A stretch of 64,000 bases of DNA, from positions 3,406 through 67,405 of the forward strand of contig CAVGNU010000002.1 of assembly GCA_963630775.1 (NCBI GenBank). Reading direction: 5' to 3'. This DNA comes from Bacteroides fragilis. Its GTDB lineage: Bacteria > Pseudomonadota > Alphaproteobacteria > Rs-D84. Both the position numbers and the translations under genes were made by a program. Each line of letters begins with the position of its first letter. The first letter of the stretch is position 1. This document shows, in pieces, positions 6,344 through 10,288 of this stretch. The notes below the pieces were generated by a model. The model saw nothing but the letters and a program-made list of their open reading frames with translations. It did not search any database and was not told the DNA's origin.

Positions 6344-7654
6344 TTATTCCAAATTCAACAAGCGATATTTCGCACGAACACGTGTCTGGATTTCAGACAA
6401 TGCGTTCATAAAATCCGCTGCCGTTGCGTTCTGGTTTGTGGCAACGGTTGCAAATAGTTGGTACGACGCCGTGTCGCCACGCGTATCACGCGCCACGACC
6501 GATGCCATACGATTCAAATCCAACAACGTCATATCTGACAGATTGGCCACACCACTTTCTAGATTCCAATAATAAGCGGGGTTCACAGAATCTTCTATCT
6601 TTTTACTGACAGCCAATTTTGGTGTAATTGAACCTGCGAATCCGACCGTCACATAAACCGCGGTAATGTACCCCGACGTCATGTCCACCGAATCTGTGAC
6701 GCGTAACAATGCGATTTTTTCGCTGTCACTGATGGATAGTCCCCCCAATGTCAAATTAGATACCCACAGGTCACCGACATTAAAACTGGAAAATTTACCC
6801 ATGTCCGCCAATTTGAATGTACCCGTCACATTCAGTGTACGCGAATCCGCCGACATAGTGCCAGATACCGTTGCATTTTTTATGCCGAACGTACCGTCCA
6901 ACGTCGGGCGTGTTTGGTATATCAAACTGGAAACCGCCGCACGCCCCAGTGTTAAATTATCCGACAATGCGACCGACGATGCGTTCAAGAATTTCATACC
7001 GGTAATATCATGCCCGCCCAGATTCAAACCCGCCTGCATTGTTGCGTCGCGCGCATCGTCTGATGGCACACGCCACAGATATAGTGCATTGTCCAGATTC
7101 ACCGATGTCGTGGCAACGATACCATTTGCTGCAATAATCCCCATATCAACATTATCAGTGCGCGATGTGCCAAACGCGCCATACGTACGCGCATTGTCCA
7201 CAAAACCAAGTTGTCCCGCACCAGTTGCCACAATTTCACGTGTGCGCATTGGCGTGATATCAGCGTCTGACATAACAACGACACCCTGTAATGTGGATTT
7301 GCCACGCACGTCGTTTGATTTCAACACGCGTAATTGGTAGTCACGGCCGTTGTCCATTAAATTTGTATTCAGACCATAATCCGCCAAATCCGCCATTTCC
7401 AGACGTGTGATATTTTTGCCAACTGTTTCCAGCAATTTTTCACGGTTTGCAACAATATAGCGTTCCAATGCACCCTGAATATTTTCCATTTCGCGGGCAA
7501 TAACAATATTTTCGGCGCGACGAACCGCTCGTGTTTGATATTGGAACAAAAACGGGATTATCAATGTCGCCAACGCAACTGACAACAGTAATTCAACCAT
7601 TATGCCGCCACGCGACGTATTTGATGCAGAAAAGATACTCAATGATGTTTTCAT
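6344..7654 (-). CDS. Large prepilin-like protein A (PilV/tail-fibre-like motif)
   Basis: Class-III-like N-terminus SRGGIMVELLLSVALATLIIPFLF. Motif LYLWRVPSDDARDATMQAGLNLGGHDITGM. ATG 7654 overlaps the stop of gene B as TAATG. The track ORF extends to 7690. Confidence 0.7.
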   Translation of the reverse strand: MKTSLSIFSASNTSRGGIMVELLLSVALATLIIPFLFQYQTRAVRRAENIVIAREMENIQGALERYIVANREKLLETVGKNITRLEMADLADYGLNTNLMDNGRDYQLRVLKSNDVRGKSTLQGVVVMSDADITPMRTREIVATGAGQLGFVDNARTYGAFGTSRTDNVDMGIIAANGIVATTSVNLDNALYLWRVPSDDARDATMQAGLNLGGHDITGMKFLNASSVALSDNLTLGRAAVSSLIYQTRPTLDGTFGIKNATVSGTMSADSRTLNVTGTFKLADMGKFSSFNVGDLWVSNLTLGGLSISDSEKIALLRVTDSVDMTSGYITAVYVTVGFAGSITPKLAVSKKIEDSVNPAYYWNLESGVANLSDMTLLDLNRMASVVARDTRGDTASYQLFATVATNQNATAADFMNALSEIQTRVRAKYRLLNLE

Positions 7655-8856
7655 TACTGCAAGACCTCTTGAGGTGTTGCGGATTTCCAACCGCTTTGCA
7701 TTATCGCATTAAATTCTGATGCATTGGGTGCGGCGGGTAACACAGCACGCGACAATGTCAAACTCGAAAATGTCGGTGCTTTGGTGTTTGGAAATGTCCA
7801 ACTGCCCAATTTTAGCGGGGCATTTGTTGACATCAGCAATTCACCCGACACGGTCAATCCAAAGTTTTCATAAAAAACAATTTCTTGGGCAGATACGTAT
7901 GGTGTTTTTACAGAATTCGCACTGATACCCGTAAATCCACTGATTGTTCGCACCGTATCTGATTTCAGAATCAAATCGCGCGCAACATTTACGGAATTGG
8001 TTATGGTTGCGCGGTCGGTTACGATACGACCATTGGTTGTGTATGCCGCACCATTCATGCTGTCCGCGTTGATTGTTCTGAACCCAGAAATATCACCCGT
8101 CACACGCATAGAATTGATTTTGACACCCGCACCATCAACATTTGCGCCACGGCGAAAATATGCGGTAGTCGCCGTCATATCATCAATGCCCGCGAATACT
8201 GCCGACATATTTTGAACCCGCGCGGACACGCCCGATAGCACATCAACATTGTATATATTGTTACCCCCCATATTCAAATCGCGCAACATGGTGTTCAGGT
8301 TTTCTTCGTCTGATGCCGTGCGATGCAGGTATTTTGTCGTATCCAATCCAGCGACATCACGCGACACGCGATACACTAATAATCCTTCGTGAAAGTCCGG
8401 TGCAGACACCGCCCAATTTGCGCCATATGCCACACCATCAGGCGACACAATCGCGGCATCTGCACCAACATGGCGGGCGATACGATGTGCGTCCAGTTTA
8501 TTATCTGCAATATCAAACGCCAAATACACATCGGTAATCGTTGCGCCACGAACAGAATACTTGTCAATAAATCCGGCCGTGATTGACGGTGATATTTGCG
8601 ACAATTCATCGTCCGATAATTTAATTTGAACCGTATCAGGCCAGCGGTCTTGGTTAGTACGGACATAGTTCAATGTAATATCACGCAGTTCTATAATCTG
8701 GTGTGCAATCGCCATATCGCGCAGATTCGACGTTGTGTCCGTAATTTGTGCATACAGCACGGGTGCCGCAATCGCAACGATTGCCATGGACAGAATAACC
8801 TCTGTCAAACTGGTGCCACGGGTGGCGGGCGACGAAAATATACGCGATTTAATCAC
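7654..8856 (-). CDS. Large prepilin-like protein B (PilV/tail-fibre-like motif)
   Basis: N-terminus MIKSRIFSSPATRG|TSLTEVILSMAIVAIAAPVL with Glu at +5 after the Gly. Motif YLHRTASDEENLNTMLRDLNMGGNNIYNV. GTG start overlaps the end of gene C by 8 nt. Confidence 0.7.
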   Translation of the reverse strand: MIKSRIFSSPATRGTSLTEVILSMAIVAIAAPVLYAQITDTTSNLRDMAIAHQIIELRDITLNYVRTNQDRWPDTVQIKLSDDELSQISPSITAGFIDKYSVRGATITDVYLAFDIADNKLDAHRIARHVGADAAIVSPDGVAYGANWAVSAPDFHEGLLVYRVSRDVAGLDTTKYLHRTASDEENLNTMLRDLNMGGNNIYNVDVLSGVSARVQNMSAVFAGIDDMTATTAYFRRGANVDGAGVKINSMRVTGDISGFRTINADSMNGAAYTTNGRIVTDRATITNSVNVARDLILKSDTVRTISGFTGISANSVKTPYVSAQEIVFYENFGLTVSGELLMSTNAPLKLGSWTFPNTKAPTFSSLTLSRAVLPAAPNASEFNAIMQSGWKSATPQEVLQ

Positions 8857-10288
8857 AGTTGCTGCCCCCGTCTAACATACATTGTTTGATATCAATACGT
8901 CGTTCCAAGCGTTGCCAAAAATAATACTGGCAAATTATATATTGCGACAATGATTTTGCATTATAAGAACCGCCCAAGTCCGCAATCAATGTCCCGCACG
9001 TAACTGTTGTATTGTCTGAGTCAGATGGTGATTTCAGTGGCGCAATCGTGTCATTGTTTATTGTGCTGACAAATGCGTCTGGTAATACAGATGTGCCAGC
9101 GGGACGAATATCTAAAATGACCGCCCCTGTTTCCCCGTCCGATAATGCATCAGACGTCTGATCGCGCATTGTAATATTTGATGTAGCAATTGACGCAACG
9201 CTGATACCACTGTATGACGAATAACTCAAAGAATCTTCGTCAATATACACATCTTGGCCGCGCGCAGCATTCAGGAAAGAATTTATTTCCAATCGTTCAA
9301 CACTGAAATTCATCTTGTCGCTGACCACGTTACCACGCACATACCAATTCGCGGGACCTGTAAAACTGGTACGCCCCGCCGTCATGGCAAAATCATATAC
9401 CGATGCGGTATTTGAGTTAAATGTTCCAGCATCGCCAAACGCCGCAACCGTACGCGCATCAACAGAATCAACCGACAACGTGCCACGGGTCAACGATAAC
9501 GCAGATTCGCCGTCCGGACTTTGGAATACCGCCTTGTCCGCGGTTGCGTTTTTAATAGAATTTTTTGCCTTGCGTCCATTCTCTGTTCCGGTCAGTGACA
9601 GTGTTGTAATTTCACCCGTATCAAAACCCGCACTGTTTGCGATAATGTCGCCAACGTTAGTCAGTGAATTACCATTCATTTCCAAATTGGTCAAGAATGC
9701 GCCCGCGTCCAAATCCGTATCATTACGACGCACAATGTCCGAATACGCATCGTCCAGCGCAATCGCCACCACCAGCGCCCTATCGTCCGCCGCCGCATAG
9801 AATCCAATGCGACGCACCAGTTCTGCTATTTGAATACCCGATAAATCGCCGCCTGTCATTTTCAAATATGCCGATACCTGACTGGAATCCTTGTGAATAA
9901 CCAGTGCGATATTCTGGCCCAGTGCAGTTTGTGGTCTGAACCCCAACGGCAGCCCATACGGTTCCAGTAAATCCGTAAATTGCGTGCCCGATACCACCGT
10001 TTCGTTATACGGCAACGCAAGCGCATTTTCGCGAATAAATATACGTGCTGCTGCCGCAGCATTATCAATCTGGCGTGTGGTGGAATACATCTGGGCGGCC
10101 ATGTCGCGCGACGCCAAACGCGATGCAAAAAACGGCATAAACGCAAAAATACACGTCAACGCCAACAACGCCTGTAATAAAAAATTTCCGCTTTGATTTC
10201 GTGGCAAGTGAATATGCCCCCTCCTACATACCGAACAGAATAGCAACTGAAAAAAAATATTGCAATCAGTTTTAAGATGATTTAACAT
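8849..10288 (-). CDS. Large prepilin-like protein C (PilV/tail-fibre-like motif)
   Basis: N-terminal segment NQSG|NFLLQALLALTCIFAFMPFF with Gln at +5. Motif FLTNLEMNGNSLTNVGDI. A strong AGGAGG at 10220-10225 precedes in-frame ATT 10213 and TTG 10207, so the true start may be internal, giving a short leader peptide. Confidence 0.65.
   Translation of the reverse strand: MLNHLKTDCNIFFQLLFCSVCRRGHIHLPRNQSGNFLLQALLALTCIFAFMPFFASRLASRDMAAQMYSTTRQIDNAAAAARIFIRENALALPYNETVVSGTQFTDLLEPYGLPLGFRPQTALGQNIALVIHKDSSQVSAYLKMTGGDLSGIQIAELVRRIGFYAAADDRALVVAIALDDAYSDIVRRNDTDLDAGAFLTNLEMNGNSLTNVGDIIANSAGFDTGEITTLSLTGTENGRKAKNSIKNATADKAVFQSPDGESALSLTRGTLSVDSVDARTVAAFGDAGTFNSNTASVYDFAMTAGRTSFTGPANWYVRGNVVSDKMNFSVERLEINSFLNAARGQDVYIDEDSLSYSSYSGISVASIATSNITMRDQTSDALSDGETGAVILDIRPAGTSVLPDAFVSTINNDTIAPLKSPSDSDNTTVTCGTLIADLGGSYNAKSLSQYIICQYYFWQRLERRIDIKQCMLDGGSNCD

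Follow-up and report, generated by a model that had tools for sequence, protein, structure and literature searches.

How three large pilin-like proteins come to be encoded side by side, apart from genes for pilus assembly, and what they might do there, are the questions raised by the locus described here. The analyzed stretch (64,000 nucleotides, positions 3,406 to 67,405 of contig CAVGNU010000002.1; hereafter the window) carries three consecutive genes on the minus strand, designated A (8849..10207), B (7654..8856) and C (6344..7654), which encode PilV-like minor pilins of 452, 400 and 436 amino acids (aa), respectively. The first-pass annotation of this DNA regarded them either as adhesins for the tip of a type IV filament or as an undescribed surface fibre system. 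The evidence favours the former: the trio probably makes up the adhesive end of a chromosomally encoded type IV pilus used for holding onto other cells. With a probability of roughly 70%, we consider A, B and C to be remote members of the PilV family that act as minor pilins in a chromosomal R64/IncI-type type IVb pilus, the genes of which are scattered around the genome of Candidatus Enterousia, and, with the same confidence, to constitute a fixed three-gene, shufflon-free version of PilV forming the tip or initiation complex of this pilus.

The resemblance to PilV noted in the first-pass annotation was borne out by profile comparison. Searches with hidden Markov models (HMMs), which had been recommended as a check, gave no match above threshold in Pfam, NCBIfam or PHROGs, whereas profile-profile comparison found PilV: alignment with hhalign to eight PilV proteins yielded probabilities of 99.5% for C (E = 1.2e-22), 99.3% for B (E = 9.4e-21) and 95.7% for A (E = 9.4e-9). 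The alignment is colinear from the signal peptide through a conserved motif, in which the PilV consensus YLYR..PELNTM.TDLNMGGN.INNV pairs with YLHRTASDEENLNTMLRDLNMGGNNIYNV in B. In a collection of 72,556 plasmids (7.3 Gb), tblastn with B produced 17 weak matches, with pilV annotated in 12 of 15 among the matches listed, while C produced five, all of them pilV (best E = 6e-6, residues 26-314). Screening of 1.84 billion representative proteins with the B profile retrieved only 198 relatives; Pfam Shufflon_N was present in 9 of 57 distant ones (best E = 4.5e-56). The three window proteins show no match to Shufflon_N at E<=1, and two of 38 family members do match it (best E = 5e-6). The identity of the trio to PilV is about 22%, which lies under the Pfam threshold. 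In all three proteins, profile comparison shows homology of the N-terminal ~210-250 residues with the constant region of the IncI-plasmid PilV (Shufflon_N).

This N-terminal homology domain of ~210-270 residues, which holds a YLxR...LNxM...LxMGGNxI motif, is common to A, B and C, and the motif noticed earlier in all three proteins lies within it. Comparison of the family profiles with hhalign linked B with C (E = 2.4e-21), A with C (E = 1.8e-9) and A with B (E = 3.6e-5), while BLASTP among the three proteins linked only B and C (E = 6e-8). The paralogy proposed in the first-pass annotation therefore applies to the N-terminal halves, but not to the C-terminal ones, for which hhalign of each against the others detected no mutual similarity. 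Each protein ends with a distinct, unannotated module of ~190-235 residues, and no Pfam domain was found in these modules in a scan of 38 family members. In PDB sequence profile searches only generic pilin N-terminal helices were obtained; there is no solved PilV structure.

Two other candidates were rejected. The suggested resemblance to phage tail fibres was not upheld, as there was no match in PHROGs and tblastn against 50,697 phage records gave a single tail-fibre match (E = 6). A shufflon was likewise discarded: only chance-level short repeats, and no sfx-like repeats, are present in the region 5800-10700. No integrase or recombinase domain was found in window open reading frames (ORFs) of at least 150 aa.

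All three proteins carry the class III (prepilin-type) signal, i.e. a short polar leader, Gly at position -1, a hydrophobic helix and Glu at +5, except that A has Gln at +5. The leaders end as MPRNQSG/NFLLQ in A, ATRG/TSLTE in B and SRG/GIMVE in C (the slash marks the predicted cleavage site). Gly at -1 is invariant in the A, B and C families (80-82 species). The site in C is better placed at RG/GIMVE than at SRGG/IMVE, where it was originally set. At +5, Glu is found in B of 80 out of 82 species and in C of all 82, and Gln in A of all 80; Gly14 and Glu19 are invariant in the B family alignment. In type II secretion systems (T2SS) and type IVa systems, the tip complex is as a rule capped by a subunit that lacks Glu5, while type IVb pili have fewer, larger minor pilins, such as the trimeric CofB tip (PMC10191384, PMC6048534, PMC5207764). 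By analogy, the Gln5 fixed in A of Enterousia would fit a cap role.

The three genes are tightly packed. The stop codon of A and the GTG start codon of B overlap by 8 nt (GTGATTAA, 8849-8856), as read in the sequence at the junction, while the stop codon of B and the ATG start codon of C form TAATG at 7654. The ORF listing and the sequence thus confirm the coupled arrangement reported in the first-pass annotation. The listed ORFs spanned 8849-10288, 7654-8856 and 6344-7690 (all on the minus strand), and two of their starts required correction. Protein B retains its 400 aa. The start of A was re-set to the TTG at 10207, which gives 452 instead of 479 aa and a 7-residue leader, because most homologues are 451-452 aa long and an AGGAGG sequence (10225-10220) precedes this codon. 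For C, the coupled ATG at 7654 is most likely the start, giving 436 instead of 448 aa.

The window belongs to Candidatus Enterousia. This genus and the wider Rs-D84 are widespread, uncultured gut Alphaproteobacteria devoid of any obvious nutrient transporters. When one genome per GTDB species was scanned with B, relatives were detected in 147 stretches, of which the best 80 of 147 were kept as loci. They derive from Candidatus Enterousia, "uncultured Rickettsiales" or alphaproteobacterial metagenome-assembled genomes (MAGs) from animal and human guts; one is located on a circular chromosome of 958,618 bp. Genes A, B and C are colinear in 82 of the 82 loci in which all three were found, and in these loci they share a chromosomal housekeeping context (dnaX, rluD). 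No pil operon context of a conjugative plasmid or an integrative and conjugative element was found at the trio locus. Median identity to the window is 60% for A, 58% for B and 54% for C, compared with 77% for dnaX and 72% for rluD; by these values the trio evolves faster than the housekeeping genes, yet clearly under constraint. Members of Enterousia, placed in the order Rs-D84, have genomes smaller than 1 Mb, lack most biosynthesis and standard transporters, and have been proposed to depend on partner cells, with type IV pili reported for a different lineage only (PMC12306168).

Beyond Enterousia, positionally orthologous trios were found on three distant alphaproteobacterial MAG contigs with a guanine-plus-cytosine (GC) content of 28-37% (L090:5447-9809, L091:8616-12732 and L092:8588-12838). 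They are tight, again have a housekeeping setting, adjoining recO, ksgA or recR, and by family HMM scores gene 1 corresponds to A, gene 2 to B and gene 3 to C. Gene 1 of L090 has a weak precomputed match to Shufflon_N. As such a trio occurs in three distant lineages, the triplication is old and has been retained 1:1:1.

A pilus tip requires a pilus, and a candidate for its main subunit is encoded close to the trio. Beside dnaX, at 12301..12759 on the plus strand, lies a gene for a type IV pilin of 152 aa with the leader MQTESG/RSLIE and two conserved cysteines. Of its 16 orthologues, 12 weakly match Pfam PilS (PF08805; best E = 7e-4), all below the gathering score, and a weak PDB match to TcpA was also obtained. 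This protein is likely the major (PilS-like) subunit of the same pilus as the trio. The gene directly following it (12686-13429, plus strand) encodes an OmpA-family lipoprotein; the listed ORF overlaps the pilin gene by 74 nt and, since its orthologues are 218-227 aa long, its true start is probably located downstream.

The core of the R64 thin-pilus operon is composed of PilO, PilP, PilQ and PilR, in this order, plus PilS and PilV. As stated in the first-pass annotation, such machinery was not found in the window: no T2SSE, T2SSF, Peptidase_A24 or secretin domain is encoded in its ORFs of 150 aa or more. It was identified in other Enterousia, with PilO (PF06864), T2SSE and T2SSF all found in the loci L047, L060, L088 and L089. 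In two species (L047 and L060), the genes follow one another in a single string, dnaX-pilin-OmpA-Skp-PilO-233aa-T2SSE-T2SSF, in which PilO exceeds the PF06864 threshold, the ATPase is of the GspE/PilB type and the platform protein of the GspF type. The 233-aa protein of L047 was assigned to PilP by position, the scan with the PilP family TIGR03021 having been made on its 230-aa counterpart (E = 8e-8, 33.3 bits against a cut-off of 34.65). In L088, the genes for PilO, the 230-aa protein, T2SSE and T2SSF share a 118-kb contig with the trio locus L001; the cluster begins ~9 kb past the end of that locus, its ATPase gene lies ~30 kb from the B gene, and it is preceded by VirD4, rsmE, rluX and a gene for a tetratricopeptide repeat (TPR) protein. 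Among the matches listed, the ATPase is 87-95% identical across clusters of the closest homologues, several of which are annotated as Alphaproteobacteria MAGs. Because the lineage encodes this R64-type PilO/PilP/ATPase/platform cluster, an undescribed surface fibre system is not needed to account for the trio.

How the three proteins would share the work can be approached from their conservation. One possibility is that A, B and C are alternative tip adhesins, each capping separate pili, perhaps in homotrimeric form as CofB does, and that they provide three receptor specificities at once, as a hard-wired substitute for the shufflon. Such an arrangement would suit the C-terminal modules, which, like those that alternate in PilV (PMC9045228), are mutually unrelated, as well as the homotrimeric state of CofB and TcpB, two type IVb minor pilins (PMC6048534, PMC9565799), and the Glu5 in gene 1 of the outgroup lineages. 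Orthology is, however, strictly 1:1:1, with a fixed order in 82 species and three distant lineages and no change in copy number; the overlapping start and stop codons imply a fixed stoichiometry, and Gln at +5 is fixed in A only. Since these features favour non-redundant roles in one assembly, we regard interchangeable adhesins as rather unlikely. One heteromeric complex fits the 1:1:1 orthology and the overlapping genes better.

The PilV-like tip complex could then arise as follows. A prepilin peptidase encoded elsewhere would cleave A, B and C after the Gly, and the mature proteins would join via their N-terminal helices into a complex that starts polymerization of the 152-aa pilin. Type IV filaments grow from the tip to the base, so the initiating complex would end up, and stay, at the pilus tip. 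Protein A, with its Gln at +5 in Enterousia, would be placed on top of the complex. The three C-terminal modules would be exposed at the tip, where they would attach to a partner cell much as PilV, by which this step is modelled, binds the lipopolysaccharide of recipients. The three fixed genes would replace the shufflon, the source of alternative C-termini in plasmid PilV; as no shufflon is present, adhesin diversity would be hard-wired in three genes. In its most specific form, which we put forward tentatively and hold to be possible but less probable than not, this model predicts an obligate heterotrimeric tip (A as the cap, B and C beneath), ancient in reduced-genome Alphaproteobacteria, which primes a minimal type IVb pilus, displays three receptor-binding modules and lets Rs-D84/Enterousia cells latch onto the partner cells off which they presumably live.

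Several observations weigh against a PilV-like tip of an R64-type pilus. Proteins A, B and C themselves score above threshold in none of the family libraries (Pfam, NCBIfam, PHROGs). The three outgroup lineages have Glu at +5 in gene 1, which limits the cap argument to Enterousia. Neither a prepilin peptidase nor a secretin was detected by tblastn, with one plasmid peptidase and one PilN secretin as queries, in the ~1.7 Mb covered by the Enterousia loci, which represent only a minor share of the genomes. We infer the tip location and the adhesin function of A, B and C by analogy only. Structure prediction gives evidence on both sides. An AlphaFold2 model of residues 1-215 of B, built from a combined alignment, has a mean predicted local distance difference test (pLDDT) score of 72 (77-90 at residues 20-170) and comprises a 55-residue helix (17-71) followed by a small antiparallel sheet, i.e. 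the predicted secondary-structure elements appear in the pilin order. The full-length model of B is poor (pLDDT of 46, below 35 in the C-terminal half), and Foldseek with it returned noise. As Foldseek with both B models gave no significant match to a PDB pilin, the fold evidence is suggestive, and structural confirmation of a pilin fold comes solely from the order of these elements. Finally, the genes that flank the PilO-to-platform block, namely that for the TPR protein (24320-25327) and accC (59718-61088), are both found in the window, but the block itself is absent there, which makes it a putative part of this particular genome.

The absence of this block bears on another explanation, according to which the trio is left over from an integrated IncI-like conjugative element, without working assembly machinery here, and is decaying or serving a non-pilus use. 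Neither of the two positions at which relatives carry PilO, PilP, the ATPase and the platform protein is so occupied in the window, which contains a lone coupling protein of the VirD4/TraG type of type IV secretion systems (T4SS; 20695-22881, minus strand), with no other T4SS genes recognizable among ORFs of at least 150 aa. Against a relic stand the intact ORFs with processing residues invariant in 80-82 species, the GC content of the trio, which equals that of the surroundings, and the highly conserved promoter; furthermore, purifying selection is indicated by the median identities (54-60%, compared with 72-77% for rluD and dnaX). In L088 the block reads PilO-PilP-ATPase-platform-gidA-fabG-fabD; provided that gidA, fabG and fabD are housekeeping genes, as is presumed, it has most likely moved rather than been lost. 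We therefore consider a relic extremely improbable. Relative to L088, two rearrangement breakpoints can be placed in the window, at ~25330-25410 and ~61090-61190. The VirD4/TraG gene of L088 is located four genes upstream of those for PilO, PilP, the ATPase and the platform protein, and a VirD4 gene near the PilO cluster may hint at a shared origin from an IncI-like transfer system.

Comparison with known systems places the trio nearest to PilV (PF04917), the shufflon-controlled adhesin in the conjugative type IVb thin pili of the IncI1/IncI2 plasmids (R64, R721, TP114) and of PAPI-1. Shared features are the prepilin signal, a length of 400-480 aa, a homologous N-terminal constant region with the YLYR..PELNTM.TDLNMGGN.INN motif, divergent C-terminal parts (receptor-binding in PilV) and a link to PilO, an ATPase, a platform protein, a PilP or PilP-like protein and a PilS-like pilin. 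On the surface of recipient bacteria, PilV recognizes lipopolysaccharide or further structures (PMC9045228, PMC5297154). The trio differs in being chromosomal, vertically inherited and located among housekeeping genes, apart from the assembly genes. It also consists of three fixed paralogues, without sfx repeats or Rci, instead of one gene with invertible 3′ cassettes, and one of these paralogues (A) lacks Glu5. By sequence it is a remote member of the PilV superfamily that falls short of the curated Shufflon_N model, has no shufflon and does not lie in a plasmid operon.

CofB, TcpB and LngB are likewise large modular minor pilins, with a pilin domain and beta-rich C-terminal domains; they initiate assembly, are trimeric at the tip and are able to dock secreted proteins. 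They are homotrimers of one gene product, whereas the trio is encoded by three different genes. PDB profile searches revealed no sequence similarity to these pilins, and Foldseek gave no significant match. In the GspH/I/J/K and PilH/I/J/K (FimU-PilVWX) complexes several minor pilins are also encoded together and form a tip complex with a cap devoid of Glu5, but these proteins are of roughly 100-330 aa, belong to unrelated families, are four rather than three in number and have no large adhesin modules. By analogy, the trio would work like PilV, CofB or TcpB. No description of it was found in the searched literature.

The trio opens a longer transcription unit. Upstream of A, on the minus strand, a promoter-like element (10237..10278) comprises TTGCAA (10265-10260), a 17-nt spacer and TATTCT (10242-10237) with TGC ahead of it (extended -10). 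This 42-nt sequence (ATCTTAAAACTGATTGCAATATTTTTTTTCAGTTGCTATTCT) occurs once within the window and is nearly invariant in 21 aligned species, the A proteins of which are only ~60% identical. It holds a direct repeat (CTGATTGC / CAGTTGC), which could be an operator. The N-terminal extension of A proposed by the ORF caller (MLNHLKTDCNIFFQLL) is this element in translation. Between the element and dnaX, divergent from A, there is a conserved small ORF (10358-10657, plus strand) encoding a highly charged product of 99 aa, in place of which L001 and L002 have a 101-aa gene.

Downstream, the unit runs in the order A, B, C, a gene for a 171-aa zinc-ribbon protein, a gene for a 155-aa secreted protein and rluD, in agreement with the first description, and is closed by an intrinsic-terminator-like hairpin (4349..4367, minus strand) found in a terminator scan. 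The zinc-ribbon protein (5808..6323, minus strand) contains an MJ0042-type zinc ribbon, a transmembrane segment and a DUF3426/FxLYD-like domain. The 155-aa protein (5344..5811, minus strand) has a Sec signal, shows no family match in family-library scans and could be a pilus-associated secreted factor. Both genes are co-transcribed with the trio and syntenic in 82 loci. Directly downstream of the operon, in 66 Enterousia loci, a gene for a Cys- and Thr/Ser-rich protein is conserved (1158-4271 in the window, minus strand; 1037 aa), with a Sec signal, a C-terminal hydrophobic segment and no family match; strong terminators lie on either side of it (1130-1153 and 4349-4367). Protein A itself contains four conserved C-terminal cysteines.

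The proximity of these secreted proteins raises the alternative that the trio supplies the minor pseudopilins for a short T2SS-like endopilus within the periplasm, which would export the 155-aa or the 1037-aa Cys-rich protein and form no surface adhesin fibre. Two Sec-signal proteins are indeed syntenic with the trio in Enterousia, type IVb minor-pilin trimers bind and export TcpF and CofJ (PMC9565799, PMC6048534), and a family-library scan of the trio gave a weak gspI-like N-terminal match. On the other hand, the specific homology is to PilV, the PilO (PF06864) and PilP (TIGR03021) markers belong to R64-type pili and not to T2SS, no such secreted proteins follow the trio in the outgroup loci, and adhesins typically have variable C-terminal modules such as these, of 190-235 aa. 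An endopilus is thus very unlikely, and the PilV-like tip of an R64-type pilus remains the favoured interpretation.

If the heterotrimeric arrangement is true, an adhesin of a conjugation-type mating pilus would have been domesticated for an epibiotic or parasitic lifestyle. For the PilV family, these results extend its range from plasmid mating pili to vertically inherited chromosomal genes, adding about 1,000 sequences per family that the current Pfam and NCBIfam models miss. They also point to a second evolutionary route to adhesin diversity, in which three fixed paralogues take the place of a DNA-inversion shufflon. For Enterousia, the conservation of a pilin, an R64-type assembly core and a three-member PilV-like set provides a concrete, testable candidate for partner attachment.

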